This document shows, piece by piece, positions 1,929 through 32,752 of a stretch of 35,320 nucleotides of DNA. The notes beneath the pieces were generated by a model, which saw only the letters and a program-made list of their open reading frames with translations, did no database searches and was not told the DNA's origin. Source of the DNA: a virus (lineage: Duplodnaviria; Heunggongvirae; Uroviricota; Caudoviricetes); the IMG/VR virus record IMGVR_UViG_2869970738_000004; one strand, given 5' to 3'. Position 1 is the stretch's first letter, and each line of letters begins with the position of its first letter. The position numbers were made by a program, and so were the translations under genes.

Positions 1929-2063
1929 AGCGACCTCTCTTATTGTAGTGCTTGCACTATTCTAGGTTGTATTCTCTAAGATTTAAACATGACTTTCTCT
2001 ATATAATGATTTTTAGCATTAGTTAATAAACGAACGGCACTCTAAGGAGCGCCGTCAAAGATA

Positions 2064-5000
2064 TTATTCTGATGTCACTCTTTGCGAGTGAGCTATTTTT
2101 AAATCAGCGTTTCCTTCAAATACTACATTCAACTCATAGTTAAGAGTTAGCTTGAATTTATCTGAGTCACTTTTGATATTCTCTGAAGTGACATTTACTA
2201 ACTTATTATTATCATATTCTCTAATAATTAATTTAGTGAAGTAGTTATCCTTTACCACAAGAGAAAATGGTTGATTAACAAATGGTAAGAAGTAAACCTT
2301 ACGGGTACCGGATTCAGTAGTTATGTTCATAGAGCCATCATCATTTTTTCTCATTAGTTCTCTGAGGTTGGGATTATCGAAAAGCATACGATTATATTGC
2401 TGAAAGATCTCTTTACTCATCACAAGAACCAGTTTGCCAGCCAAGTCAGCAGATGATTTTATGTGATCAATCAACATATTGAAATCTTCTATTACGGTAT
2501 GTTGCGAACAGCCAGTGCTAAATAAATTTGAAAGTATTATTCTCTGGATGTCCTTGAGAATTAAGTCTGCTTGAATATCACCTTCATTGATATAAGGGAT
2601 GGATTCTATTCCTTCGGCATACGGTTCTTTATCTATCTTAATAGATATCTTATGTTTTGTGAAACAATCGCTAGCCTGCTTAAAATCAATAGATTTGAAA
2701 AGTGAAAGAGGGAGCGTTTTCTTGATGCGTTTACGAAGATGTTCTGATGTTTTACGTGCAGTGCTATCTAGTCGATGTACATCTATGGCAGCATCCTGAA
2801 GTCTCATATCAAGATCTTTCTTTAGCATGTTAATATGCTCTTGAAGCAACTTTCTTAAGTTTTCTTTTTTTGTTTGGAGATCGTCCAATGTTAAAGTCAG
2901 CTTGATTTTAGTATATTCGATGGAGTTACAAATTTTTGATAATACTCCAATGAGTCGTTGCTTCTCACGATATGTTATATAGTTGTTTTCTATTGCTTCT
3001 TTTATTTCTTTTGATACGCTATCGTTCTTGTTAGGAAAAATTAATAATAGCTGAACCCATGATTGTTCCATATCAATAAATCCACAGTCAAAAACATTAC
3101 TGTAAACTCTGCCCATCACCATGTCTGTTTTATCATAGTCACGTAAACGCCTTGCTAAACTATTCATCCACCCATTGTGTTCCATATTTTCAGACCATGT
3201 CCACAGGCAGATTCTAATTAATATCTTGATTAGTTGGCTTGCATTATCAATTTCTTCAGTGGGAGTTTCATATCCACCGGTTTGGTCAATAAGTTTACCC
3301 TCTAAAATAAGTTTAATGTAATGTGTCATTAGTTTGTCAGAAGTATTGATTCTTGATGTCAGATAAAGACATGTGCATATACGCATGTCAGTCAACGCAT
3401 TTATGATGGCAATATTGAACCACTCTCTGTCTGAATTGAAGTTTAGTTTTTTGGATATGAAAAAACCCGGGTTAAAAAGCTGGCCTTTGTAACTGTATTT
3501 TTCTACCGAATGGCTGTCAATATTCATTGAGTGCTGCCATCGGTTAATAAGATCGACGGCTGTATCAATAGTAGAAGGATCGCGAGTCTGTGTTGCATCA
3601 ATAATCATCGATGGAAGTTCTTGTAGTTGCGTTTTGCAAAATAATTCAAATAAATCTGAATTCTCTGTATTGCAGAAACGAAAGTTTATGCTTTCTTGAT
3701 ATTGCTCCCAAACAGTGGTATAGGTTCTTAATATACGATTATAACGTGAACGAAGCGAGGCATTTAAGAGTGATTGGTTGTTTCGGAACCATTCTGTTAA
3801 TATTGACCATTGTGAACGAGTAATTCCCATATAGATACAAAGTTCATTGCTGATAAGATGTTTTCTATTATTGATAATACGCACTCCGCTCCAAAGACAT
3901 AATTCAAAAAATCTTTCAGAAAGATTAATTTTATCCATGGAATTATTTGATATTTTATAAACTTCATCTGAAAACTCATATTGAAAACTCCGTTCAAATA
4001 ATTCTGTAGTGATCAGTAAGAAGTTATTGTTGGTATTATCATCTTGAAAAAAATACAAATCGCAGAGATTATTAAAGTTATTAATTAATGCAGAGATAGC
4101 ATTGTCAAAACTAATGAGATCAGAATCCCGCAGATACATATACGTATCTGCTGTTATAGCCTGCATTGTAAGACTTACGGAAAAATCTCCTCCTTTAATC
4201 GGAGCCCTATAAAAACATTGCTTAAGTATTTTTATTAATAAGCTGTCTGGTTTGATATTTTTAACGCTAAAAAGTATCTTACCCGTGGATTCTGTTTCTT
4301 TTGTACGATTATCACCAATGACAAATGACGCAAAATGATTCTTCTTTTTTAGTTGGTAATTAATAAGATTAAGAGTAAGTTGAAAAGGACGGTGATATAA
4401 ACTTAACTCATCTTCCTTAGAATAACTGCTAGCCACAGATATGTATTCTCCTTTGTAATCGGCTTGCTTGATTTCTAAATTTGAATAGTTATGTTTTTGA
4501 TAGATAGGGTATAACCTAAGCTTGGCTGAGATTTTGTTACAAATATGGGGCATTACTATTTCGAAGGCAATGTATCGCTTTATAATTATTTGCCGTTTTA
4601 CATCATCAAGAATTTCAAGACTCACGATAAAGAACCAAATAGAAAGAACTATGTTTATCAAAAGCCATAATATGCTGATTAGACAAGCTATACCATAAAG
4701 ATAACTTCCAAAGACAGTTTTAATTAGTACACTGAGAAGTATAAATCCTGATAAGAAAAGCCCGCTGAGTCCAGCAAGCATGAATCCTGAGTAACGCTGA
4801 TAAGCAGTTTGGGCTATTTTTCTATCTGCCTTTTTTTGGAATAAGATACTTACTAAACCTATAACAAGGGGGTATACAATACCAATAATTGTCAATTGGC
4901 CACTTAAAATGGTTGTTTGCCATTCGGTTAATGAATGCCTAAACGGGAAATAATGTAAAAGATTATTTTTTATAAATAATTCGTTTAAATATCCAACATA

Positions 5001-5183
5001 AAGTAGTACAAATGAAAAAGCTGATATGCAAAGTACTGATTTAACCGGTGAGGATGTTAATCTTATGATGTTTTTTTCAATAAAATTCCATTTTAAATTC
5101 GAATAAAATGGATTTTTAACCATTTTATTACGAACATAGTTCTTTGCTAAAATCTCTGTTGCACTTAAAAATTGTCCAATCAT
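2064..5183 (-). CDS. Hypothetical 1039-aa membrane-anchored protein, AT-rich accessory gene between D and ogr; candidate defence/abortive-infection factor
   Basis: Single uninterrupted ORF; nucleotide composition clearly more AT-rich than flanking phage genes; four hydrophobic helices at about residues 49-190 followed by about 850 aa of Asn/Lys/Ile-rich soluble sequence; no canonical Walker A (GxxxxGK[ST]) seen. Confidence 0.8.
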   Translation of the reverse strand: MIGQFLSATEILAKNYVRNKMVKNPFYSNLKWNFIEKNIIRLTSSPVKSVLCISAFSFVLLYVGYLNELFIKNNLLHYFPFRHSLTEWQTTILSGQLTIIGIVYPLVIGLVSILFQKKADRKIAQTAYQRYSGFMLAGLSGLFLSGFILLSVLIKTVFGSYLYGIACLISILWLLINIVLSIWFFIVSLEILDDVKRQIIIKRYIAFEIVMPHICNKISAKLRLYPIYQKHNYSNLEIKQADYKGEYISVASSYSKEDELSLYHRPFQLTLNLINYQLKKKNHFASFVIGDNRTKETESTGKILFSVKNIKPDSLLIKILKQCFYRAPIKGGDFSVSLTMQAITADTYMYLRDSDLISFDNAISALINNFNNLCDLYFFQDDNTNNNFLLITTELFERSFQYEFSDEVYKISNNSMDKINLSERFFELCLWSGVRIINNRKHLISNELCIYMGITRSQWSILTEWFRNNQSLLNASLRSRYNRILRTYTTVWEQYQESINFRFCNTENSDLFELFCKTQLQELPSMIIDATQTRDPSTIDTAVDLINRWQHSMNIDSHSVEKYSYKGQLFNPGFFISKKLNFNSDREWFNIAIINALTDMRICTCLYLTSRINTSDKLMTHYIKLILEGKLIDQTGGYETPTEEIDNASQLIKILIRICLWTWSENMEHNGWMNSLARRLRDYDKTDMVMGRVYSNVFDCGFIDMEQSWVQLLLIFPNKNDSVSKEIKEAIENNYITYREKQRLIGVLSKICNSIEYTKIKLTLTLDDLQTKKENLRKLLQEHINMLKKDLDMRLQDAAIDVHRLDSTARKTSEHLRKRIKKTLPLSLFKSIDFKQASDCFTKHKISIKIDKEPYAEGIESIPYINEGDIQADLILKDIQRIILSNLFSTGCSQHTVIEDFNMLIDHIKSSADLAGKLVLVMSKEIFQQYNRMLFDNPNLRELMRKNDDGSMNITTESGTRKVYFLPFVNQPFSLVVKDNYFTKLIIREYDNNKLVNVTSENIKSDSDKFKLTLNYELNVVFEGNADLKIAHSQRVTSE

Positions 5184-5431
5184 GAATTACTCTTCTATAA
5201 AGTGTGGGTCTACTAACTAAACTGGAACTTTTACTATTGAGTCATATTCCCTTGGACGGGATGGACTGTGAAGATTATACTTGACTTCCTCTGTCATGTG
5301 GGAAAAACATCCGTATTATTGTTAGCATCTGGTTGATGCCCCAACCTCTGACATCTAGTGGGCTGATACATTATCTTTTGTTCTTACTGTCAGTGTAGAA
5401 GCACATCTCAAAAATAATATTTTTAAGAGAT

Positions 5432-6541
5432 TTATTCTGTTTCTGCTATCCATTCCGGGATTTTTGCTTCAAGTTCAAGCTGCGTGGTAAAGCCGCTGTT
5501 ATCAATGGTGTGCTCGGCTTTTGCAATAATCCAGTCCTGATAATCAATCTCGCTTTTAAAGCCTGTCACTGTGCCATGCATTTCGGGATAGAGTTCTGCA
5601 CGACCACGCGCCAGTGTGATGGAAAATGATGCGGCTCCGCGTTGTAGCTGCTGCCACTTTGCCGCCGCTGCGCGTCTTGCTGCCTGCTCGTTCTGATAAG
5701 TCTTGCGTAACACAAACACGTTGCCTTCCGCACCTTCCATATAGTCGCCTTCCCGACTGCTGCTTTTCTCCTTTTTGGGTTTTGGCGGTTTGCGGCGTTT
5801 CACGCTGACTTTTTTCTTTTTCCCGTAATTAAGATCAAGCCAGTAGGCGCGTACCCCCGTATACGCCTCGCGGTCAGCAATGCGGAACTGATGGCGATCG
5901 CCGCTGCTGCGTGTAATGGCGAACGAGGGCAACGGCTGCCCCTGTGCGTTCACGCCACCACCTGGCATGATGAATAACAGATTGCCGCTTTTTACCGTGG
6001 CGATTGCTCCCAGCATTTCCGCCATGCGCGTAAGAAAGGACATGTCGCTTTCTTCGGTCTGGTCGGCGTGGTCGATTTCGATATCCATCAGCATTTCGCT
6101 GATTTGCGGTTTCAGACCGTATCGATGAGCGATGGCGGATACCACACGCTCAACGGTCACATCATGCCAGGACACCTCACGTTTAACGTTAAATTCATCC
6201 CGAAAATCTGCGCTTCTGGCTGAAACAGTCAGCCTGTCCGGCGGTCCTTCGTGAGCGATTTCATCAACAATGTAAGTGCCTTTTTCTGTCAGCGGTTCCC
6301 CTTTCCAGCCAATGAGAACCGTCAGACGCGCGCCCCGTGGCGGTAGCTGCAACTGACCATCCGCATCATCCAGCGTGATGGTGAGCTGGTCCGCCTCAAA
6401 TCCCCGGTTGTCGGTCAGTTACAGGCTCATCAGGCGCTCCGCCACGCCTGACAGCGTTTTACCCTCCGAGAGAATATCAAAATCCGGCATTTTCACGGGG
6501 GCCGTGCCCTGACTGAGCAATTGCATGGTGGTGTCGGTCAT
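5432..6541 (-). pseudogene. D: P2 gpD-like tail protein with in-frame TAA at codon 41
   Basis: ATG at 6541 with GGAGGGAG RBS; frame reads MTDTTMQLLSQGTAPVKMPDFDILSEGKTLSGVAERLMSL, then TAA (6419-6421), then continues in the same frame into the 306-aa track ORF. Confidence 0.8.
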
Positions 6542-9714: not shown

Positions 9715-12558
9715 GTGAGCGAGCGGCACTTCGTAGCGGGAATGCAGACAATGAAGACTCTTGATATCCGGGTCGCTTTCAGCGCCGTTGACAGGCTGAC
9801 CCGGCCTGCCGAAAACGCCCGCCGCCTGATGGGGCAGTTTGGTGACTCCATCCAGCGAACGCAGGGGGCGATCAAAAATCTCGAGCGTCAGGCGCGATCA
9901 TTTGAGCGCGCCCGTGACGCTGTCAGTAAAGCGGATGCGGGCATCGTGAAAGCACGACGCCAGCTTAACGCCCTTAATCAGTTACAACGCACGGGTACAG
10001 TGCTCAGCGAAAAACAACAAAAGCTGATGCAGCAGTTAAGCACCCGGCTTGAACGCCTGAATGAATCGCGCACACGGGAAATTCAGAAAATGCGGGAGCT
10101 TGGCGGAGAGCTGAAACGCCACGGCATTTCCCTGACAGGCAGCGATAACACCATCCAGCAGGCCATCAGACGCACCGAACAGTACAACAACCAGCTTGAA
10201 CGCGAACGGCAGGCGCTTGCGCGTGTAACACGGGCGCGTGAGCGGTATTCGCGCGCGCAGGAAACAGCGGGAAAACTGAAAACAGGTGGTGCGCTGGCAA
10301 TTGGTGCGGCAGCGGCGGGCGGCTATGCTGCCGGGCGTTTTTTGCAGCCTGCGATCGGGTTCGGCAAAGAGATGTTCCGCGTTCAGGCACTGACGCGAAT
10401 CGACCAGAACAGCCCGCAGTTTAAGGCGCTGCGTGAGCAGGCGTTAAAACTTGGCTCTGAAACGCAGTTCACCGCAGGCGATGCCGCCAGTGGACAGGCA
10501 TTTCTTGCAATGGCTGGCTTTACACCACAGGCCATTCAGGCTGCGCTCCCTGGCGTACTGAGCATGGCAACGGCTGGCGGTATGGACCTCGGTGAGACGG
10601 CGGATATTGGCTCAAATATTCTGACGCAGTTCGGTCTTTCTGCTGACCAGATGGACCGGGTCGGCGACACACTCACCGCAGCGTTTACCCGTACCAACAC
10701 TGACCTTCGCGCACTGGGTGAAACCATGAAATATGCAGGTCCGGTGGCGGGTAAGCTGGGAATATCTCTGGAGCAGGCCGCAGCGATGGCGGGCGTGCTG
10801 GCGAATATGGGTATCAGGGGGAGTGATGCTGGTACGGCAATGCGTGCCAGCCTGGCTCGTCTGGCATCACCGCCAAAGGCGGCAGCAGAGGCGCTGAAAG
10901 AGCTTGGCGTGTCTGTCTCGGATGCCGGGGGCAAAATGCGCCCGATGGAGGATGTGCTGGCTGACCTTTATAAAGCTACCCGCAAATACGGGGAAGTTGA
11001 CCGGGTATCGTTCTTTAAGGACATTGCCGGAGAAGAGGCTTTCACATCATTTATGGCCCTCGTTGATGCGGCAGGTGACGGCTCCTTACCCAAACTGAGA
11101 AAAGAACTTGAAGGCGCGCGCGGTGAGGCTGAACGCACGGCAAAGGTTATGGCCAACAACCTTGACGGCGATCTGAAATCACTCAGCAGTGCATGGGAAG
11201 GGTTGCGCATCCGCATTGCAGATCTGATTGACGGTCCGCTGCGTTCTGTCACGCAGTGGCTCACGCGTGTGGTATCAAAGGTGACGGCGCTGGCGCAGGC
11301 CCATCCCGCACTGACGCGCCAGCTACTGATTGCAGGCGGTGCATTGCTGGCAATGACTGCAACGGTTGGCTCGTTGTCGCTGGCTATTGGTGTGCTTGCT
11401 GGCCCGCTGGCAAAACTGCGTCTTGGTTTTTCCCTCCTGACCGGATCAATGAATGCTGTCAGGGTTCTGCCAGCACTATGGGGAATGGTGACGGGTTCCG
11501 TTTCTTTACTGGGAGGCGCTATCGGGGCGTTGTTCAGTCCGGTTGGTCTTATCGTGGCTGCGCTTGCCGGAGCTGCCGTTCTTATCTGGAAATACTGGGA
11601 TCCCATCAGGGCATTTTTTGCCGGGGTGTTCAGCGGGATTATGGAAAGGCTGACCCCGTTGCGCGAAACATTTGAACGGTTTGGTCCTGTTTTTGACGCA
11701 ATCGGGAGTGGGATCAGCCAGGTGTTTAACTGGTTTAAATCGCTGCTGTCACCGATGGAGTCCAGCAAGGAAACTCTGGATAAATGTACCAGTGCTGGCG
11801 AGATATTCGGTAACGTTCTTGGCGGTGCGTTACAACTTGTTCTGACACCTGCAAAAATGTTGCTGGATACGCTGGCGTGGATACTTGAAAAGCTTGGTGT
11901 GCTTCCGGATGAAGCGGAAAGGGCGCGCAAGAAAATCGAAGACGCACAGCGTGCGGCCATTCTTCAGGACAAGGTTGCCTTGCTTCAGGGGGACCTGGCG
12001 AAAATCAATCCGCCGAAGCCTGTGGAAAATGGCAATGGCACCGGAGGTGATAACCCCAAAGACAATAAACCGCTCACAGACAGCAATACCGGTACGCTGC
12101 GCAGACTCAGCAAAATTGCTGATAACACAGGTAAGCTGGTTGAGGAGACGAAAAAACGCATTGGCCCCGGCGATATTGTCTTTAAAAACCTGCCCCGAGC
12201 ACTTGCTGTTCGTGGGGAGTGGCAGGAGCGGAAGATTGCGCAGGTCAGTAAGCCTGCCCCCGCAATTAATATCACACCCGTGGTTCCGGCTCCGCTGCCT
12301 CCGGCGCTGGTCCCTGTTGTTGCGGCCAGCTCCCGCCCGGTGGCGGAGGCTATACGATCTCCAGTGGCATCAGTTCCTGTAACTTCCCGTAACCGGGAGC
12401 CTGTTGCCTCCGGATTTGGTGGTGAAATTCATGTTCATCTGCATAACGTTGTTACGCAGAATCCCCGCGAACTGGCGAAACTGGTCGGTGAAATGGTCAG
12501 GGCAGAAATGGAACGGCGCGCCCGTGCCGGGCGTGGCTGTTTTTACGATAAAGATTGA
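9715..12558 (+). CDS. T: Tail tape-measure protein (P2 gpT-like); true start may be an internal Met near 9742-9751
   Basis: 947-aa ORF with coiled-coil N-terminus, Gly/Ala-rich hydrophobic middle and Pro/Ala-rich tail, in the canonical position after E/E'. Confidence 0.9.
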   Translation: MSERHFVAGMQTMKTLDIRVAFSAVDRLTRPAENARRLMGQFGDSIQRTQGAIKNLERQARSFERARDAVSKADAGIVKARRQLNALNQLQRTGTVLSEKQQKLMQQLSTRLERLNESRTREIQKMRELGGELKRHGISLTGSDNTIQQAIRRTEQYNNQLERERQALARVTRARERYSRAQETAGKLKTGGALAIGAAAAGGYAAGRFLQPAIGFGKEMFRVQALTRIDQNSPQFKALREQALKLGSETQFTAGDAASGQAFLAMAGFTPQAIQAALPGVLSMATAGGMDLGETADIGSNILTQFGLSADQMDRVGDTLTAAFTRTNTDLRALGETMKYAGPVAGKLGISLEQAAAMAGVLANMGIRGSDAGTAMRASLARLASPPKAAAEALKELGVSVSDAGGKMRPMEDVLADLYKATRKYGEVDRVSFFKDIAGEEAFTSFMALVDAAGDGSLPKLRKELEGARGEAERTAKVMANNLDGDLKSLSSAWEGLRIRIADLIDGPLRSVTQWLTRVVSKVTALAQAHPALTRQLLIAGGALLAMTATVGSLSLAIGVLAGPLAKLRLGFSLLTGSMNAVRVLPALWGMVTGSVSLLGGAIGALFSPVGLIVAALAGAAVLIWKYWDPIRAFFAGVFSGIMERLTPLRETFERFGPVFDAIGSGISQVFNWFKSLLSPMESSKETLDKCTSAGEIFGNVLGGALQLVLTPAKMLLDTLAWILEKLGVLPDEAERARKKIEDAQRAAILQDKVALLQGDLAKINPPKPVENGNGTGGDNPKDNKPLTDSNTGTLRRLSKIADNTGKLVEETKKRIGPGDIVFKNLPRALAVRGEWQERKIAQVSKPAPAINITPVVPAPLPPALVPVVAASSRPVAEAIRSPVASVPVTSRNREPVASGFGGEIHVHLHNVVTQNPRELAKLVGEMVRAEMERRARAGRGCFYDKD

Positions 12559-13068: not shown

Positions 13069-13098
13069 AAAACCGCTAATGGTCAGATTAGCGGTTTT
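13069..13098. terminator. Perfect 12-bp-stem hairpin between convergent U and invertase genes; likely bidirectional terminator
   Basis: AAAACCGCTAAT-GGTCAG-ATTAGCGGTTTT; T-run follows on the + strand, A-run precedes. Confidence 0.6.
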
Positions 13099-13732
13099 CA
13101 TTTTCCTGAGTCTGCCCGGTTGTTTCTTCAGTCTGTATATCGCCTACAGGGTGATAACGATAAATCGTCGATGTGCCAATGCCGTAAATTATTGCCAGTT
13201 GTTTTCTGTCGTGCCCGTTTTTGATTAGCCTTGCTATTTGCTCATGCTGTTCTTTTGTCAGCTTCGGTCGACGTCCGCCTGTGCGCCCCCTTGCGCGCGC
13301 TGCCGCCAGCCCGGCCAGTGTACGTTCAACAATTAATTCACGTTCCATTTCAGCCAGGGCACCCATCACGTGGAAGAAAAAACGCCCCATTGGAGAAGAT
13401 GTGTCTATGCTGTCGGTCAGACTGCGAAAATTAATCCCTCGCTCCCGTAGTTCCCCGACGAGAGAAATCAGATGTTTCATGCTTCGCCCGAGGCGATCCA
13501 GTTTCCAGACAACCAGCGTGTCACCTTTTTGAAGGCGCTTTAAAGCGCGTTTTAATCCCGGTCGGTCTGTCTTTGTCCCGCTTAATTTATCTTCAAATAT
13601 TTGTTCACATCCTGCACAAACAAGAGCGTTTCGTTGCAGGTCTGTATTGTTGATACCCTTACATAGCCAATCAGCACACTGAATCTCCCGTCCAAAAGCG
13701 CAAATCATGCCATGCAGGCCAGAAACGGCCAT
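13088..13732 (-). pseudogene. Gin/Pin/Cin/Hin-family serine DNA invertase, N-terminal frameshift separating the catalytic-serine motif from the body
   Basis: Body matches invertases (…NTDLQRNALVCAGCEQIFEDKLSGT.TDRPGLKRAL…HTH); the motif LIGYVRVST is encoded in a different frame from NTDLQ, consistent with a 10-bp deletion between short ATA repeats. Confidence 0.8.
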
Positions 13733-23244: not shown

Positions 23245-24158
23245 GCCGGATAGGCTCCGTGTGGTAACTGAAAATGCGGTCCGTCTTTCAGGGTCTTCCA
23301 GTCGCCGCCCCATTCCACCGGAATATTCAGTTCCCGGCTGGCCTGTCTGAATGCTGCTGCGATTTTTTCGTACAGCGGCCATTCCCATGACACCTGGCTG
23401 CCGATATAAGCCACAACATCCACGGCATGCCCCGTAAGGTGGCGGCTGTTCATGGTCTGGCTCTTACCCGTGGCCACCAGTTGCTTCTGGCGGTAACGGC
23501 TGCGCAACCCTTCGGTGATACCAAAATCCACTTCCGAGATTTCCAGTGCCCGTCGGGTCACTTTCACCAGATCAGGATTTACACCCTGCAAATTCTTTTC
23601 GCTCCGGCTGCTGAATTTAAATGTGTTGCTCATTCGTCCTTCTCCTTCACTCTGGATACTGTTAAACGTCATCACCGCCTGACGTTGCTGTGCCGTGAAT
23701 TTCAGGCGCTCAGTGCCCAGGCTTGCCGGGGTGTCGGTCATCGCCAGCCCGACCAGATAGGCGCGCCCGTTAACGGAGAACTGCGGGTGCAGTTCGATAC
23801 TGGAATAGATTTTCTTGCCGTCCGCAACAAGCTGCTTCATGCGCTCGGTCGGTTCGATTTCTGCATACAGCGCAGTACGTCCGGCCAGCGGACCTTCCGT
23901 AATGTCTTCCGTACTCAGTGCGGTGACATCGCCCATTGCGGAAAATTCGCTTGACGGGCATGGCGAGAGATAGTGCTCAACGTTCACGCGGGCAGCGTAA
24001 ACATCCGGGTTGAAGTTCTCGGCGGCTTCACGCAGATGCACCGGACTGATTTCACGGCCATCAACAGTTGATCCGGAGACAGCCACGCGAAACTTTTTGC
24101 GGGATGTCTTTTTTTCATTAGCCATAGTTTTTGCCCCTCTGACTGGTTCTTCAGTCAT
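23241..24158 (-). CDS. In-frame fusion of a gpO (capsid scaffold) N-terminal fragment with an M15-peptidase endolysin; the endolysin may initiate separately at the internal Met near 23633
   Basis: Residues 12-160 are gpO-like (…FRVAVSGSTVDGREIS…YLVGLAMTDTPASLGTE…); residues 176-305 are M15 endolysin-like (MSNTFKFSSRSEKNLQGVNPDL…HLTGHAVDV…); an AGGAGAAGG RBS is translated within the linker. Confidence 0.7.
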   Translation of the reverse strand: MTEEPVRGAKTMANEKKTSRKKFRVAVSGSTVDGREISPVHLREAAENFNPDVYAARVNVEHYLSPCPSSEFSAMGDVTALSTEDITEGPLAGRTALYAEIEPTERMKQLVADGKKIYSSIELHPQFSVNGRAYLVGLAMTDTPASLGTERLKFTAQQRQAVMTFNSIQSEGEGRMSNTFKFSSRSEKNLQGVNPDLVKVTRRALEISEVDFGITEGLRSRYRQKQLVATGKSQTMNSRHLTGHAVDVVAYIGSQVSWEWPLYEKIAAAFRQASRELNIPVEWGGDWKTLKDGPHFQLPHGAYPA

Positions 24159-25927
24159 GATGGCAAAGCGTAACAGGCTGATACAAAGGGCTTTTGTTGT
24201 AAGAAAACGGCCAGAACAGAGGGTTAAGGAGAACAGTTTCGCGCGCGGGTAATCTTCCTGTAATTACTCAGGGGAGCAATGATTCAGGACGCTTTTGTGC
24301 GCCAGCGTGCGCGGCAACTTTACTGGCAGGGTTATCCGCCCGCAGAAATATCACGTCTGATGGGAATAAACCCGAACACGATTTATGCGTGGAAAAAACG
24401 TGACCAGTGGGATGAAACGCCACCCGGGCAGCGTGTCACGCAGTCCATCGATGCGCGCCTCATCCAGCTTACTGAAAAACAGAATAAAACAGGCGGTGAC
24501 TTTAAGGAAATAGACCTGCTGACCCGGCAGCTTAAAAAGCTGCATGATGGCCAGCCGGATGTGATGGCCGCAGGAAAGAAAGGCCGGGCGAAAAAACTCA
24601 AAAATCATTTCACGCCGGAACAGATTGCCGCACTGCGGGAAAAAATCATCAGCAGGCTGGAGTGGCATCAGCGGGGCTGGTTTGACTCCCTGACCCTTTG
24701 CAGGGAAGCCGGGATACGTAACAGGATGATCCTGAAATCCCGACAGATTGGGGCGACCTGGTATTTTGCACAGGAAGCACTGCTGATGGCGCTGCGTGAC
24801 GATGTGGCGCAACCTTACCAGCGTAACCAGATTTTTTTGTCTGCGTCGCGTCGTCAGGCGTTCCAGTTTAAAAGCATTATTCAGAAGGCGCGGCTGAAGT
24901 TGATGTGGAGCTGAAAGGGGGCGATAAAATCATCCTCTCCAACGGCGCAGAGCTGCATTTTCTCGGCATTTCTGCTGCGTCGGCACAGTCCTATACGGGC
25001 AATTTTTATTTTGATGAATTTTTCTGGGTCAGTCGCTTTGCTGAACTGCGCAAGGTGGCTGGCGCTATGGCAACCCTCAGCGGACTGCGGCGCACCTACT
25101 TCTCCACGCCATCCACCGAAACGCACGAGGCATACGCCTACTGGAACGGCGACCGCTGGAACGAGAAAAAGGCCTCGCATAAACGCCAGCGTTTTTCTGT
25201 GGACTGGAAAACGCTGCATAACGGGCTTATCTGCCCTGACCGGACGTGGCGGCAAATTGTCACGCTGGAAGATGTGGTTAATCACGGCTGGAAACACACC
25301 GATATCGACGAAATTCGTGATGAAAACACCGAAGACGAGTTCCTCAATCTCTATATGTGCGAGTTTGTCCGCGAAGGGGAATCGGCATTTAACCTGAATA
25401 TCCTGATTGGCTGCGGCGTTGACGGATACGACGACTGGAAAGACTGGAAACCTTTTGCTCCCCGCCCGATGGGGAATCGTCCGGTATGGATTGGGTATGA
25501 CGCAAACGGCAGCAGTGGCAACGGCGACAGCGGCGCTGTGTCCGTGGTGGTTCCTCCGTCTGTTCCTGGTGGCCGTTTTCGAACGGTGGAGACGCGACGC
25601 GTTCAGGGGCTGGAGTTTGAAGAACAGGCCAGAGTCATTGAAGAGTTCACGTGTCGCTACAACGTGGAACACATCGGCATTGATGTGACGGGCGGGAACG
25701 GGGAGGCTGTTTATCAGATAGTGAAACGGTTTTTCCCTGCCGCTATTCCGTACACCTTCACGCTGTCATCAAAACGGTCGCTGGTACTGAAAATGCTGCA
25801 AATAATGCGTGCCGGGCGGTGGGAATACGATCGCGCCGAACGCGAGCTGGTCGCGGCCTTTAACGCCGTGCGGGTGATGCTGCCAACTTACTGATTTAGT
25901 GTATGATGGTGTTTTTGAGGTGCTCCA

Positions 25928-26203
25928 GTGGCTTCTGTTTCTATCAGCTGTCCCTCCTGTTCAGCTACTGACGGGGTGGTGCGTAACGGCAAAAGCACTG
26001 CCGGACATCAGCGCTATCTCTGCTCTCATTGCCGTAAAACATGGCAACTACAGTTCACTTACACCGCCTCTCAGCCCGGTACGCACCAGAAAATCATTGA
26101 TATGGCCATGAATGGCGTCGGATGTCGTGCCAGTGCACGCATTATGGGCGTTGGCCTCAACACGATTTTACGTCACTTAAAAAACTCAGGCCGCAGTCGG
26201 TAA
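25928..26203 (+). CDS. insA: IS1 InsA
   Basis: 91-aa ORF. Confidence 0.9.
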
Positions 26204-26247
26204 CCTCGCGCATACAGCCGGGCAGTGACGTCATCGTCTGCGCGGAA

Positions 26248-26625
26248 ATGGACGAACAGTGGGGATACGTCGGGGCTAAATCGCGCCAGCGCTGGCTGTT
26301 TTACGCGTATGACAGGCTCCGGAAGACGGTTGTTGCGCACGTATTCGGTGAACGCACTATGGCGACGCAGGGGCGTCTTATGAGCTTGCTGTCACCCTTT
26401 GACGTGGTGATATGGATGACGGATGGCTGGCCACTGTATGAATCCCGCCTGAAGGGAAAGCTGCACGTAATCAGCAAGCGATATACGCAGCGAATTGAGC
26501 GGCATAACCTGAATCTGAGGCAGCACCTGGCACGGCTGGGACGGAAGTCGCTGTCGTTCTCAAAATCGGTGGAGCTGCATGACAAAGTCATCGGGCATTA
26601 TCTGAACATAAAACACTATCAATAA
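26248..26625 (+). CDS. insB: IS1 InsB reading frame
   Basis: MDEQWGY… portion of track ORF 26122-26625. Confidence 0.85.
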
Positions 26626-26805
26626 GTTGGAGTCATTACCCGCCGTGCGTAAGGTGAAAACACCGGGCGGCTTTATCACTTACGAAACGGACCGAGCGAG
26701 GGGGATCAGCCACGGCGACCTTGCGTGGGTAACCATGCTTGCTGTCATTAACGAACCGATTGGCGGCGAAGGAGAAAACGAGCGTTTCACGGTTATGGAG
26801 TTCTG

Positions 26806-27863
26806 ATGAGCAGAAAAAATAAAAAAGTGCGCATGAGTTCACGCATTGATCTCGCTGATGCGCTCAGGAAAGAATCATCGCTCAGTGCATTCACATTTGA
26901 TGGTCCTTATCGCCTGACCGGGCATGACCTGCTGGACAATATGTACTGTGCTGATAACGGGCGGTGGTATGAACCCCGGTGGACTGGTACGGTCTGGCAA
27001 GAGCTGCCCGGCAAACGTCTTGGCATCAGTCTGCGCTTTACTTTAAGCGCAATGTATTGCTCGGTTGCTACATCCCGCACCCGCTGCTTTCCCGGTAGGA
27101 TTTCTCGGCGCTGGCGCTGGCGCTGGCGCTGGACTGGTTTGTGTTCGGTAACGCATTCCTTGAGCTTCGAAGCAATATGCTCGGCGAACCGCTTAAATTA
27201 CGGCACGCCCTGGCGAAATACATGCGACGCGGAAGCGATCTTGAATCATGGTGGTATGTGCAGGATGGCAAGGATGCGTTTCAGTTTCGCCCAGGCAAAG
27301 TGTGTCACCTGATGAATCCTGACATTAACCAGGAAATCTACGGCATGCCGGAATATCTCGGCGCATTACTCTCGGCCAGCCTGTCTCATTCGGCGGACAT
27401 GTTCAGAAAACTGTATTACGACAACGGATCCCACGCCGGGTGCATCATCTACATCGGTGCCGCGCAGGTAAACCGCGAAAGCATGGACTCCCTGAAAGAA
27501 ACGCTACAGGGTGCGCGTGGTGGTGGTGCGTTTAAAAACGTGCTCATTCATGCGCCCAACGGGGGCAAAGAGGGGGTGCAAATTTTGCCGTTCCAGCAGA
27601 TCACCGCAAAGGATGAGTTCATGAATGTTAAGGCGGCATCCCGTGATGATGTGCTGGCTGCGCACCGCGTTCCGCCGCAACTGATGGGGGCGATGCCGGG
27701 TGAAAAAAGTGCGTTTGGTGATGTGGAGAAGGCCGCGCGGGTTTACGCAATTAACGAGCTGATGCCCGTCATGGAGGCCATGAAGCACATCAATGACTGG
27801 CTTGGCGAAGAGGTGATCCGCTTTAACCCTTACGCACTGTTAGACATCCAGCCCACATCCTGA
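26806..27863 (+). pseudogene. Q: Portal protein (P2 gpQ-like), frameshift at about 27095-27125 next to a (GCGCTG)4 repeat
   Basis: Two overlapping track ORFs (26806-27312 and 27141-27863); the downstream portal frame (…ALALALALDWFVFGNAFLE…AAHRVPPQLMG…) is closed upstream by TAG at about 27097. Confidence 0.8.
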
Positions 27864-27888
27864 TGCGCTTCGCTTGTCTGCTGCTTCG

Positions 27889-27913
27889 CCGGGGCATAAA
27901 AAATTTATGCCCC
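27889..27913. other. Perfect 10-bp-stem hairpin about 27 nt after the Q stop, no flanking U-tract
   Basis: CCGGGGCATAAA-AAA-TTTATGCCCCG. Confidence 0.4.
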
Positions 27914-28287
27914 GACTCTCCAGCTCCTGTATCAGTCAGATAATTTCACGACGCCTTCCAGTTTATCGCCACCATCGACGGTCAGACTCTTACGCAATCC
28001 CACCGCGTTGACTGCATGTTCTCGCCGCCTCAGTGCGATTTTGACGGCCTTACCTTTCACCCCATCAAATCAGAATCCCTCACGTATTTTTCACGCTCAG
28101 CGTGAGAAATACGGCCATTCTGTCGTGTCGCTGCGACATCGTTAAGGGAACGCTATTTACCCCCTGAAACGCGGGCTGTTCCCCCGTCACCTGCGCGCAG
28201 AAAAAGCGCGTTTTTTTGTGCACGCACGGATCCTTGACGGATCCAGCCGCCACGCGGGCTGGAAGGGCAAAAATTCGTTCAAAAAAA

Positions 28288-28314
28288 TTGTGCAAATTTG
28301 TGCACTATTGTGCA
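28288..28314. repeat. Three helically phased direct repeats of TTGTGCA (10-bp spacing) in the Q-distal intergenic region
   Basis: aaaTTGTGCAaatTTGTGCActaTTGTGCAgc. Confidence 0.5.
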
Positions 28315-28353
28315 GCAGGGCGATGTGCGATTATCGCCCTAGTTTGAGGGGGA

Positions 28354-28944
28354 TCAGGTGTTATTTTTATCTGTCGTCAGTGGGCTAAACCATCCACAAT
28401 TTACATCGCATGACTGATGCGTTCTGTCCTCGTGTTTCTCCTGCCACAATGCTTTTCCGCCAGCCTTTATGATGGCTCTTTCAACATCCCGCTCGTATCG
28501 CAAGGGCTGAAATACGTCATTAATGAAATATTCGCTTATGTCCGGAAGCGATACTGCAAAATTATTTGTTTGTTGCGCCGTCCTGCTATGCAGCAAAGCG
28601 GCATGCTTTAATGCGTCCTGTGCTTTCTGGAATTTAAGTGCATAGTCAGTGGCGATTTTTTCCAGTTCAGCGATTCGGTTGTCTTTGGTTTCCAGCCAAT
28701 CAAGTAGCGCCAATACTTCAGGATCCCCGACATCCAACACTGTTACGCGTGATTTTTCATAATGTTCGTCAGCAAGAGTTCGGCCAATTTTGAAATCTCC
28801 ATCATCACCATAACCGGAGCAGGCATAAACAACCTGTGCTCCAGATATTCGCTGAATTGACATTTCCTCGCCGCAAATAGGGCATTTCGGTACTGGCACA
28901 GGTGAATAACGTTCACGTAATGCCTGATAGTTGATTTCGCTCAT
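28354..28944 (-). CDS. Hypothetical 196-aa protein with N-terminal zinc-ribbon (CPICGEE…C.G) and central coiled-coil; possibly ead/Ea22-like
   Basis: Single ORF with GGAG RBS; family assignment from recollection only. Confidence 0.55.
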   Translation of the reverse strand: MSEINYQALRERYSPVPVPKCPICGEEMSIQRISGAQVVYACSGYGDDGDFKIGRTLADEHYEKSRVTVLDVGDPEVLALLDWLETKDNRIAELEKIATDYALKFQKAQDALKHAALLHSRTAQQTNNFAVSLPDISEYFINDVFQPLRYERDVERAIIKAGGKALWQEKHEDRTHQSCDVNCGWFSPLTTDKNNT

Positions 28945-29007
28945 TAAGTCGTTCTCCTTGTTTATGTTCTGAGGTGGAGAGCAGGGCGAACTCGCCCTGA
29001 TGTTGTG

Positions 29008-29319
29008 TTATTCAGGAAATAACGCCCGGATATTTCCGGCCATCTGACTGGTTATCTGTGCGGTTGATACTGGCTGTGATGTGGGGCGTTCTGTCCTGGT
29101 TTGTGTCACTGATAACGCTTCATCACCAGCCCATGCAGCCAGTCGATAAGCCTCTGCCGGATTCATTTTCAGAAGTGCCAGCCCGGCCAGAAAAGCCACG
29201 CGTTGGCCGCTTTTGCGGGCTTCTGGTGTAAGGCTGTCCAGCCAGGCGCATGCTTCTCCTTCGTTCTTGACGGCGGTGGGCTTCAGATAGAAACTTATCC
29301 GTCTGGTTGGAGTCGTCAT
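29008..29319 (-). CDS. ParR/StbB-like small DNA-binding partition protein (likely start at ATG 29319)
   Basis: About 103 aa directly downstream of the parM-like gene (4-nt gap, RBS overlapping the parM stop). Confidence 0.5.
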   Translation of the reverse strand: MTTPTRRISFYLKPTAVKNEGEACAWLDSLTPEARKSGQRVAFLAGLALLKMNPAEAYRLAAWAGDEALSVTQTRTERPTSQPVSTAQITSQMAGNIRALFPE

Positions 29320-29323
29320 TGGT

Positions 29324-29929
29324 TTACTCCTTGTCCATTGCGTACAGCCCATTAACCAGAGCAAACTGTGGCACCCCGTCCGCGATGAAAGTCGCATTAA
29401 CTCCGCAGGCTTCGCGGATAGCGGGTGCCACAATCTCCGCCCCTCCACCGACAACCATCACCCGCCCGTAACCCGAAAAACCCGCCAGCGCGCGGATCAC
29501 GCGTTGTTTCAGTGTTTCTTCCTTTTCACGAATTACCGCCATCAGGCTGGCGTAATGCGCGTCATTGTGGATGTGCTGGCGCAGCCAGGCTTCATCATGG
29601 CGATGTTCGATAATGGTATTGGCGATGTGGTGACTGGTGCGCATACCGTTAGTGGCCATCACCGACAGTACGGCATCGGCCATCAGAGAAACGCCCACGT
29701 GTGGATCGCAAAACACCTGGCTGATACCTGCCAGTTGCCCCTGAACCTTTGCCACATCCAGCGTGGTTCCGCCCAAATCCACAATCAGCAGGGATTCAAA
29801 CGGACTCATGTCAGCCAGTGCCTTAAAGCCAGCCGGAATGGATTCAGGCATAACCCGTACGTTACGGATAGTGAATGCTTCGCCGTTCTGGTACTCCACC
29901 GGGCGCATGACGTTCGCTTTTTTGCGGTT
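29324..29929 (-). pseudogene. ParM/StbA-like actin-type ATPase, 5' about one-third replaced by IS911
   Basis: Residues match the ParM C-terminal two-thirds (…RKKANV…FTIRNVRVMPESIPAGF…LIVDLGGTTLDVA…VMVVGGGAE…VNGLY); the first 5 codons of the track ORF are read from the IS911 end. Confidence 0.7.
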
Positions 29930-29940
29930 TGAAGTGGTCA

Positions 29941-31395
<1,455 letters not shown>

Positions 31396-31399
<4 letters not shown>

Positions 31400-31722
31400 T
31401 TTTTCCAGAGGCGGTCGAACTCCGCCTTCGCAAAATAAGCGGAAGCCTGGCGAAGGATATCGTTACTGCGGCGCAGTTCACGATTTTCACGTTCCAGCTC
31501 TTTCAGACGCTGACGTTCAGCGGTGGTGAGCCCGCCATCACCGCCTCCGGTATCCCGCTCATGCTGGCGTACCCAGACACGCAGAGTCTCCGGTGTACAG
31601 CCAATCTTTGGGGCAATGGAACAAATTGCCGCCCACTGTGAGTCATATTCGCCCTGACTTTCCAGAACCATACGAATCGCCCTCTGACGGACTTCGGGGG
31701 AAAAACGAGTATTTTTAGTCAT
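31396..31722 (-). CDS. IS629-like OrfA
   Basis: [61 protein letters not shown]…. Confidence 0.85.
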
Positions 31723-31993
31723 CCTGTTTACCTCTTTCTCAGGGAGTTTAGTCTCCAGGATTCCCGGGGCGGTTCAGCCTTTCAAGGTAGTTAGGGATAG
31801 CAACATGTTCATGACCACCACGTTTATACCGGTGAGTCGGCTGCTGACAGCTGACCAGCCCCAGCTCTTTCATGAGCCTGCCAGCAAGCCAGCGTCCCAT
31901 CTGGTAGCCTCTCCGGGTTGCCATTGTGGCGATGCTTCTTGCTCCGGCCGAACCATGGCTGATGCCATGTAGCTCAAGTACCTGACTGCGTAA

Positions 31994-32415
<422 letters not shown>

Positions 32416-32487
32416 TGGAGCACCTGTGTTGTTCTGAGGTGAGCATATCACCTCTGTTCAGGTGGCCAAATTCAGTGTGCCACTTCA

Positions 32488-32752
32488 AACCGAAGAACAC
32501 GGCGGTGCGGAGTCCGGAGAGTAACGGAATAGCAGAGAGCTTCGTGAAAACGATAAAGCGTGACTACATCAGTATCATGCCCAAACCAGACGGGTTAACG
32601 GCAGCAAAGAACCTTGCAGAGGCGTTCGAGCATTATAACGAATGGCATCCGCATAGTGCGCTGGGTTATCGCTCGCCACGGGAATATCTGCGGCAGCGGG
32701 CTTGTAATGGGTTAAGTGATAACAGATGTCTGGAAATATAGGGGCAAATCCA
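32488..32752 (+). mobile_element. IS2 right-end fragment (about 265 bp; 3' part of insD plus right end), abutting IS911
   Basis: Matches the complete IS2 from about 1468 to 1732; encodes …[19 protein letters not shown]…NRCLEI. Confidence 0.9.

Follow-up and report, generated by a model that had tools for sequence, protein, structure and literature searches.

An IS911-truncated type II partition cassette in a defective P2-like prophage and its intact counterparts beside the replication gene gpA

Type II, actin-like partition systems have been described on elements that normally reside in the chromosome. SrpMRC of the SXT/R391 ICEs, whose small centromere comprises four repeats, both direct and inverted, stabilises its integrating element (Carraro et al. 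2015, PMC4489591). In the Corynebacterium prophage CGP3, AlpAC is induced early, and without it the excised circular prophage DNA does not replicate efficiently (Donovan et al. 2015, PMC4446434). Rousset et al. (2022, PMC9122126) attribute a putative partition system to roughly one in four P2-like phages. They have also catalogued the parMR plus ead arrangement, listing the trio WP_000686499, WP_001289966 and WP_000211289 at the gpA-gpQ hotspot (their Table S5A). For the family of the third gene, Ea22 of lambda and Phi24B has been reported to favour lysogeny (PMC7093339). In the literature on P2-like phages we found no functional study of ParMR.

Here we analyse such a locus in a 35,320-nucleotide viral sequence (IMGVR_UViG_2869970738_000004, hereafter the window) and in its intact relatives. 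We consider it probable that the locus is a dead type II ParMR cassette, cut by IS911, next to a separate Ead/Ea22 gene, and that intact copies of the cassette segregate or position transient circular phage DNA. The gene identities and the broken state of the window cassette, taken by themselves, are close to certain.

The cassette in the window

Open reading frames for ParM, ParR and an Ead/Ea22-like protein all lie on the minus strand within 28354-29929. This interval, from gene A to cos, corresponds to the orf91-tin-old interval of P2, and the first-pass annotation had correctly placed it at the old/tin site. The parM remnant (29324..29929, minus strand) keeps codons 119-319 and the stop codon of what was a ParM of 319 aa, an actin-like protein of the R1 type. 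Its translation agrees at every position with residues 119-319 of WP_000686499 (100% identity) and matches the Pfam ParM C-terminal domain (E = 4.6e-69) together with the final 39 positions of StbA_N. An intact orthologue aligned with R1 ParM (PDB 1mwk) over residues 2-316 at approximately 50% identity (E = 1.2e-92), which upholds the initial ParM/StbA assignment. The missing N-terminal part amounts to 118 of 319 residues (37%), in agreement with the loss of a 5' third noted at first pass, and it includes the phosphate-1 motif DDGSTNIK (residues 6-13). The nucleotide-binding site is incomplete, with the phosphate-2 motif DLGGTTLD and the adenosine motif GGGAE kept and phosphate-1 absent, and the window parM is a pseudogene.

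The cut coincides with the end of an insertion sequence. An IS911 with a nested IS3 occupies 29930..32487 on the minus strand (99.8% identity to features annotated as 'IS3-like element IS911 family transposase'), and because its terminal inverted repeat (..ggccagtttttgttgaccacttca) stops at 29930, the end coordinate 29929 of the interval is exact. The sequences flanking IS911 in parM displayed no target-site duplication. On its far side IS911 adjoins an IS2 fragment, beyond which lie early phage genes, as seen in the flanks and in a map of the window against the related locus L001. The 5' third of parM, the candidate centromere described below, gpA and several early genes have therefore been deleted. 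Without the ParM N terminus, the upstream region, both palindromes and gpA, the window cassette is non-functional, a recently broken remnant in a defective prophage. The same prophage also carries an IS1 inside its terminase gene, has no capsid genes and contains many IS elements. The sole Rfam match in the window was the ALIL frameshift pseudoknot of IS3 (31325-31441).

The second gene, parR/stbB (29008..29319, minus strand), is intact and encodes a 103-aa putative centromere-binding adaptor. Its true ATG lies at 29319, its AAGGAG ribosome-binding site overlaps the parM stop codon and the gap between the two genes is 4 nt. The first-pass ParR assignment was correct. The protein matches PF10784 (Plasmid_stab_B, E = 7.9e-23) and phrog_2515 ('partition protein', E = 1.7e-57); it differs by one amino acid from the E. 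coli orthologue, and the gene differs by one nucleotide from that of L001. An N-terminal TRRISFYLKP and a C-terminal NIxxLFPE are common to the phage copy and the ParR of an IncF plasmid, and the tail, N-I/A-x-x-L-F-P, is invariant across all phage ParRs compared and the IncF plasmid ParR. In R1 this tail is reportedly the part of ParR that binds ParM (Gayathri et al. 2012). The TRRISFYLKP motif and the two helices that follow it are conserved; the AlphaFold2 monomer model, of too low quality (pLDDT 51.5) to establish an N-terminal ribbon-helix-helix DNA-binding fold, did not show the strand, and a PDB sequence search with ParR gave no significant match.

The third gene (28354..28944, minus strand, 196 aa) had been taken for a zinc-ribbon protein, a label that we withdraw: only C21, C24 and C42 are in range, where a CxxC...CxxC knuckle pair has four ligands, the best zinc-ribbon HMM matches (E = 0.014-0.11) fall below gathering scores, and the segment bearing the cysteines is missing from a variant, L009. 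Residues 2-140 match Pfam Ead_Ea22 (PF13935) with E = 2.1e-32 and 113 bits, against a gathering cut-off of 27, and the gene is identical to the copy in L001. The AlphaFold2 model is of low confidence (pLDDT 53.7); a PDB sequence search returned nothing significant, and the C-terminal part is without a match to solved structures. A GC-rich hairpin, CAGGGCGA-N-TCGCCCTG, at 28982..28999 (9983-10000 in L001, offset +18999) marks the boundary between the parR and ead modules. Another hairpin, similar to this one, lies 3' of ead at 28316-28341.

The three genes share one orientation with little space between them, and the trio recurs, both in the table of Rousset et al. and in 226 E. coli genomes, as would be expected if the Ead/Ea22-like protein assisted the actin-like pair within one functional system. 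However, parMR occurs without this ead about six times as often (1278 vs. 226 genomes), and in P88, L008, L007, L024, L016 and other phages the ead slot 3' of parMR holds unrelated genes. Ead/Ea22 proteins form a large, mosaic family across enterobacterial prophages, mainly lambdoid ones that have no ParM; P88 has its own Ead/Ea22 protein elsewhere, in its early region, and the hairpin stands between ead and parR. A three-gene system is on these grounds very improbable. The Ead/Ea22 gene is a variable accessory gene in the true hotspot slot, outside the partition pair.

On the cos side of ead, three TGCACAA repeats with 10-bp phasing (28285..28314, minus strand) sit at the edge of a conserved block. 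They were considered as parC and rejected; the same repeats occur in P88-like phages from which parMR is absent, and in P2 three TGCAT repeats are their analogue. Further on, GGTGACGGGGGAACAGCCCGC (28171..28191, minus-strand reading) is a putative cos-like core, so named for its resemblance to P2 cosR.

parMR in intact relatives

Phage P88, of the genus Xuanwuvirus, carries an intact cassette, as do other P2-like phages. Of 5426 complete E. coli genomes, 1278 (~24%) contained the parMR pair at thresholds of at least 80% coverage and at least 90% identity. A type II module in a P2-like phage had at first been called unexpected, which these counts and the published Table S5A do not support. The gene order is equally regular. 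parM follows gpA on the same strand after a 76-bp gap in which no terminator-like site was found, and 1287 E. coli genomes have an intact gpA-parM junction, vs. only a handful in which this 3' end of gpA occurs but parM does not. The order gpA-parM-parR-variable cargo-portal was also found in prophages of Plesiomonas, Hafnia, Serratia and Enterobacter, at 54-62% ParM identity. These diverged loci were obtained by protein search and contig look-up; a scan of the genome collection with a single ParM protein yielded no more than 3 loci, all near-identical, of which one, labelled Vagococcus, is probably a contaminant.

The first-pass view of one three-gene cargo cluster thus gives way to a division: parMR is fixed to the gpA lineage, and the third gene alone forms the variable cargo slot. 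In the parMR lineage the 'defence' slot begins after parR, not after gpA, which sharpens the annotation of the hotspot by moving the start of its variable part. An alternative raised at first pass, that the cluster is a conserved core early operon of P2-like phages, is about half right, in that a large branch has the pair but P2 itself and the P88-like L018 and L019 do not. Where present, parMR runs with the early operon and is not, as old/tin are, convergent from a promoter of its own.

Intact ParM orthologues keep the phosphate-1, phosphate-2 and adenosine motifs, and dN/dS values were 0.02-0.17 for parM and 0.09-0.18 for parR, which points to strong purifying selection on parMR in P2-like prophages. 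These values bear on the possibility that parMR is a plasmid-derived, functionless hitch-hiker across the whole phage lineage. The ParMR family also occurs on plasmids and ICEs, some P88-like phages are without the pair, and the window copy really is a dead remnant. Nevertheless, dN/dS of 0.02-0.18, full-length reading frames with all catalytic motifs at the same syntenic place in five genera, at 54-62% ParM identity, and carriage by the plaque-forming phage P88 (PMC5285337, a paper that does not mention the cassette) leave this explanation with hardly any credibility. The term plasmid-derived remnant, used at first pass, is contradicted by the strong purifying selection.

The gpA-gpQ interval is an anti-phage hotspot with experimental support, and a second explanation is that ParMR, either by itself or jointly with the Ead-like protein, excludes other phages, or plasmids via partition incompatibility, in the manner of old/tin. 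Among Escherichia prophages ParR varies to an unusual degree (52-96% identity vs. 91-100% for ParM), the pattern expected of a diversifying specificity. On the other hand, none of the three proteins matched the PADLOC defence models at E <= 1. parMR stays fixed beside gpA, and the defence-like cargo (KAP NTPase, HicAB, AAA+S8 peptidase) is found downstream of parMR or in its place. The pair is oriented with the early lytic operon, unlike the convergent old/tin genes expressed in the lysogen, and the conserved ATPase motifs and ParR tail point to ordinary ParM-ParR mechanics. Exclusion therefore appears improbable as the function of the pair.

A third explanation is that parMR maintains P2-like phages over the long term as low-copy plasmids instead of by integration. 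A plasmid-prophage lifestyle was suggested by Rousset et al. 2022 (PMC9122126), and one circular record of 34,461 bp, deposited as a 'plasmid' (NZ_CP148288.1), is a complete P88-like genome that includes integrase, cox, gpA and parMR. The StbA of the plasmid-prophage D6 is 47.5% identical over the full length, nearer than any other phage ParM from outside the P2-like group. Against these observations, nearly all parMR copies in the 1278 genomes are chromosomal, in integrase-bearing prophages at attachment sites, e.g. next to pdxB. Among 72,556 plasmid records in PLSDB only one autonomous phage-sized circle was found; the other high-identity matches were 0.2-1.4 Mb in size or a Shigella contig. 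There is no theta-type plasmid replicon, only the rolling-circle gpA. The maintenance idea had also been put forward at first pass; what survives of it is the agreement with the published suggestion, whereas the usual state of these phages is chromosomal, and we regard long-term plasmid life as unlikely. Monophyly of the phage ParMs is not supported by pairwise identities, the ParMs of Serratia and Enterobacter phages being 59-60% identical to an IncF ParM, as near as they are to other phage ParMs.

Candidate centromere and proposed role

The first-pass annotation had proposed looking for parC-like iterons upstream of full-length parM. Scans for direct, inverted and tandem repeats across the gpA-to-cos interval revealed no classical array of 10-11-bp iterons in the intact loci, while the IncF control has one. 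In three lineages there is a pair of palindromes, YGGG-N10-CCYR, located -126/-53, -132/-60 and -129/-56 relative to the parM start codon (ATG). The spacing within the pair is 73, 72 and 73 bp, in lineages that share just 60-62% ParM identity, and the pair straddles the gpA 3' end and the spacer before parM. The definition of the motif is post hoc, against a background of 2-6 matches per 13-20 kb. Compared with shuffled sequences, the repeat was significant in two lineages (1/200 and 0/200) and not significant alone in Hafnia (52/200). Both palindromes are absent from P88-like phages without parMR, where homology ends approximately 45 nt upstream of the distal copy, and in the window the palindrome region is deleted, according to the map against L001. 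In one phage clade the ParR strand reads NRKISFYL instead of TRRISFYL, and there the upstream repeat is also different. The two GGG-N10-CCC palindromes, inherited together with parMR, are accordingly described here as a candidate centromere. They could instead be RNA hairpins or operators, and two sites may be too few for a ring-like segrosome of the R1 type.

From these features we infer how the intact cassette would work. parM and parR would be transcribed with gpA or just after it, while the phage genome is extrachromosomal following infection or excision; this timing is read from gene order only, because the region upstream of parM gave no sigma-70-like promoter. ParR dimers would bind the two palindromes, at the gpA end and in the gpA-parM spacer, and filaments of ATP-bound ParM would be captured by the conserved NIxxLFP tail of ParR. 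The filaments would then drive circular phage copies apart, dispersing or partitioning them during a transient replicating or unintegrated stage. Such stage-specific DNA movement may be likened to that of SrpMRC and AlpAC.

In its most specific form, the proposal is that about one in four E. coli P2-like prophages, together with relatives in at least four other genera, carry a minimal two-palindrome ParMR machine, coupled to gpA, that partitions or spaces circular genomes. We put this version forward tentatively and think it less likely than not. If true, it would add to classical P2 biology either a facultative carrier or episomal stage or organised foci of replication, and would imply a type II system with a centromere much smaller than R1 parC.

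For the window itself the consequences are slight, its cassette being broken. The puzzle lies with the intact phages, which integrate and replicate by rolling circle, and which keep a plasmid-type actin segregation machine beside the replication gene under strong purifying selection. P88 is inducible and offers a tractable model, and the two conserved palindromes are a concrete candidate for the centromere.

Comparison with known systems

The gene A to cos interval is shared with P2 old/tin, to which parMR has no homology. In P2 these are convergent exclusion genes, expressed in the lysogen from a promoter near cos, whereas parMR is co-directional with gene A. The third gene of the window shares its family with lambda Ea22 and P22 Ead of the exo-xis region (residues 2-140), but it has a different C-terminal part and its location is the P2-like hotspot.

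ParMRC (StbAB) of R1/NR1 and the IncF plasmids is the system most like the phage pair. The ParMs are approximately 50% identical over their full length, with all nucleotide-binding motifs, the ParRs belong to one Pfam family with a shared N-terminal strand and C-terminal tail motif, and in both systems parM is followed by a tightly coupled parR. The differences lie in setting and in cis-acting sites. R1 ParMRC is on a plasmid and its parC consists of 10 iterons of 11 bp, whereas the phage cassette lies downstream of gpA in an integrating P2-like phage and has at most two candidate palindromes 73 bp apart. The E. coli phage ParR, at 103 aa, is shorter than the R1 type, and no promoter belonging to phage parMR itself was detected. 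The StbA/ParM of the P1-like D6, the nearest phage relative outside the P2-like group, belongs to an obligate 91-kb plasmid prophage in which partition is plainly required; P88-like phages integrate.

AlpAC/alpS of CGP3 likewise combines an actin-like filament protein with a DNA-binding adaptor in a prophage, but the actin-like family and the adaptor are different ones, alpS has 24 short repeats vs. the two phage palindromes, and the host is a Gram-positive bacterium without MreB. SrpMRC resembles phage parMR in being a type II actin-like system on a normally integrated element, and SXT/R391, like these phages, replicates its excised form with a rolling-circle-type initiator. SrpM and SrpR are distant from R1 ParMR, of which the phage proteins are close homologues, and SrpMRC serves a conjugative element and has an experimentally demonstrated function, whereas parMR is viral and is described here from its sequence.

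Partition genes and an Ead/Ea22 gene beside IS911

Three open reading frames, all minus-strand and in the same orientation, were read at window 28354-29929. The first-pass annotation had described them as one cargo cluster of a truncated parM-like gene, a parR-like gene and a zinc-ribbon gene. Its coordinates were exact: the parM remnant (29324-29929, -) ends at 29929 and adjoins the IS911 terminal inverted repeat, which ends at 29930. The remnant matched the ParM C-terminal domain (4.6e-69) and the tail of StbA_N, and its product shares 100% identity with residues 119-319 of ParM WP_000686499 (319 aa), in agreement with a missing 5' third. The intact ParM orthologue aligned over its whole length to R1 ParM (PDB 1mwk; E 1.2e-92) and retains the phosphate-1 (DDGSTNIK), phosphate-2 (DLGGTTLD) and adenosine (GGGAE) motifs; ParM relatives at 40-52% identity are present on thousands of enterobacterial plasmids. 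The parR-like gene (29008-29319, -; ATG at 29319; 103 aa) matched PF10784 Plasmid_stab_B (7.9e-23) and the phrog_2515 'partition protein' (1.7e-57). Two motifs are invariant between its product and the ParR of an IncF plasmid: R-x-x-SFY-x-x-P in the N-terminal part and the tail N-x-x-x-LFP at the C-terminus. In R1 ParR the C-terminal tail is the ParM-binding peptide. Both assignments were thereby confirmed. The zinc-ribbon label fared poorly, as the third protein (28354-28944, -; 196 aa) has three cysteines, sub-threshold zinc-ribbon HMM matches and a low-confidence structure model. It belongs to the Ead/Ea22 family (Pfam Ead_Ea22, E 2.1e-32), which is large and mosaic in enterobacterial prophages; Ea22 of lambda and Phi24B reportedly promotes lysogeny (PMC7093339). 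Similar hairpins, AGGGCGA...TCGCCCT, lie on either side of the gene (window 28982-28999 and 28316-28341) and may act as terminators or mark the cassette boundaries.

This prophage has undergone extensive decay. Mapped against the intact prophage L001 (E. coli FDAARGOS_1299), window 26641-29929 matched portal-cos-ead-parR-parM(3'). An IS1 occupies the large terminase gene (25873-26640), and a deletion of ~3.4 kb at 23645-23657 removed the gpX, head-completion, small-terminase and capsid genes and part of the scaffold gene. At 29930-32752 lies IS911 containing a nested IS3 (ALIL pseudoknot), with an IS2 fragment directly next to it. Phage sequence resumes beyond these elements in the early region, so the phage has lost gpA, several early genes and the 5' third of parM, and parMR in this window is an inactivated remnant. 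No target duplication was found at IS911 (flanks GTT and AAC), which argues for a deletion mediated by the element, not its simple insertion. The event is recent, since between the surviving genes and their E. coli orthologues there are 0-1 nucleotide differences. The identical truncated allele also occurs in a Shigella boydii contig, which makes a Shigella genome the probable source of the window.

Two further features were recorded in the window. A 1039-aa ORF (2064-5183, -) lies inside a 33% GC island (2001-5500), just past a truncated gpD tail gene (5432-6352) and near the other prophage end. It had no Pfam or PADLOC match, and of 5426 complete E. coli genomes only 5 contained its DNA, there annotated as 'MFS transporter' or 'hypothetical protein'. 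A serine resolvase/invertase gene (13088-13732, -; Resolvase 2.9e-43 plus HTH_7) lies between an ORF of tail tape-measure size (9715-12558) and downstream tail genes, a placement that suggests an invertible tail-fibre segment.

Conserved parMR and a variable slot

The phage type is P88 (genus Xuanwuvirus, Peduoviridae); this same ParM is found in P88 and its relatives. Among 5426 complete E. coli genomes, 1278 contained the parM-parR pair and 226 the trio with its cos flank. The junction of the gpA 3' end with the parM 5' end was intact in 1287 E. coli genomes, and few records had this gpA end without parM. After parR the content varies: Ead/Ea22 (L001, L002), a truncated Ead (L009), an XF1762-family trio (L008), a DUF3800 gene (L024), two other small genes (P88) or IS3 (O157:H7). 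The 54-62% identical ParMs of Plesiomonas, Hafnia, Serratia and Enterobacter belonged without exception to P2-like prophages with the gene order gpA, (0-2 small genes), parM, parR, variable cargo including HicAB and a KAP NTPase, (ogr), portal; relatives at <=50% identity were located in an ICE and plasmid-like DNA. Within E. coli, dN/dS was 0.02-0.17 for parM and 0.09-0.18 for parR. The intact junction, the cross-genus synteny and the low dN/dS together indicate that parMR extends the replication module and has been conserved in this lineage by selection. The observation behind the first-pass annotation stands and its interpretation only in part: parMR and the third gene are two units, and the true hotspot slot starts after parR.

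Among Escherichia prophages ParR is 52-96% identical versus 91-100% for ParM, with the linker and the C-terminal half accounting for most of the variation, and matches spanning query positions 124-1352 or 167-1352 place recombination breakpoints inside parR. The ParM of 'Vagococcus sp. WN89Y' contig NZ_JBQPOM010000071.1 (L005) shares 98% identity with the ParM of the E. coli phage; the contig is probably contamination or a mislabelled assembly.

A candidate centromere upstream of parM

No iteron array was found near full-length parM in the intact loci, where the first-pass annotation had proposed looking for parC-like iterons, whereas the IncF control has one. Three 10-bp-phased TGCACAA repeats (window 28285-28314, -; L001 9285-9315) form the exact edge at which the cos-side conserved block starts. 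They were rejected as parC because all P88-like phages have them, whether they carry parMR or not; at the corresponding place P2 has TGCAT x3. The likely function of the repeats is in packaging or as a promoter, and they mark the cargo slot's recombination boundary.

A pair of palindromes, YGGG-N10-CCYR, co-travels with parMR. Relative to the parM ATG they lie at -126/-53 in the E. coli clade, E. albertii and Salmonella (spacing 73 bp), -132/-60 in Plesiomonas (72 bp) and -129/-56 in Hafnia (73 bp). The motif was defined post hoc; its background frequency is 2-6 matches per 13-20 kb. The embedding direct repeat exceeded 199/200 dinucleotide shuffles in E. coli and 200/200 in Plesiomonas, and was not significant on its own in Hafnia. 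Both palindromes are absent from P88-like phages with an AAA+S8-peptidase in place of parMR, whose homology ends ~45 nt upstream of the distal palindrome. In Serratia and Enterobacter phages the two GGG/CCC palindromes are replaced by a different long inverted repeat upstream of parM (L015 6887-6940; L016 6883-6950), with arms of 14-20 nt, core ATAGAAAAAT and a GC-rich spacer of 26-28 nt. Their ParR N-terminal strand reads NRKISFYL rather than TRR(I/V)SFYL. This covariation between the ParR adaptor and its putative upstream site is suggestive.

Predicted role of parMR

Rousset et al. 2022 (PMC9122126) analysed this very gpA-gpQ interval, listed the present trio and reported a putative partition system in roughly a quarter of P2-like phages, so the arrangement is known, annotated and catalogued; our literature search found no functional study of ParMR in P2-like phages. 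The additions made here are modest: parMR is separated as backbone from the Ead gene as cargo, its cross-genus conservation under purifying selection is documented, and two palindromes are proposed as a candidate centromere.

parM follows gpA on the same strand after 76 bp, with no terminator-like site seen between them and no sigma-70 promoter detected upstream of parM, from which we infer that parMR is expressed in the early or replicative programme. P2 old/tin, unlike parMR, are convergent and have their own promoter adjoining cos. A defence function for parMR is unsupported: PADLOC gave no match, its position is fixed, and its orientation is that of the lytic operon; the high variability of ParR relative to ParM would, however, fit diversifying specificity. 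Service to a stable plasmid lifestyle would fit L020 (NZ_CP148288.1, 1-34461), a complete P88-like genome on record as a circular, non-mobilizable 'plasmid' (34.5 kb) of E. coli Z1323PEC0009, with integrase, C, cox, gpA, parM, parR and structural genes. This was the sole autonomous circle among 72,556 plasmid records and integrated copies outnumber it by >1000 to one, making a plasmid role less likely. parMR would rather act while the phage genome is a free circle, with ParR on the candidate palindromes linking phage circles to ParM filaments that would drive the copies apart. The srpC centromere of SXT/R391 is likewise small, with only four direct and inverted repeats, and functionally the closest parallels are SrpMRC, from the SXT/R391 ICEs (PMC4489591), and AlpAC, from prophage CGP3 (PMC4446434).
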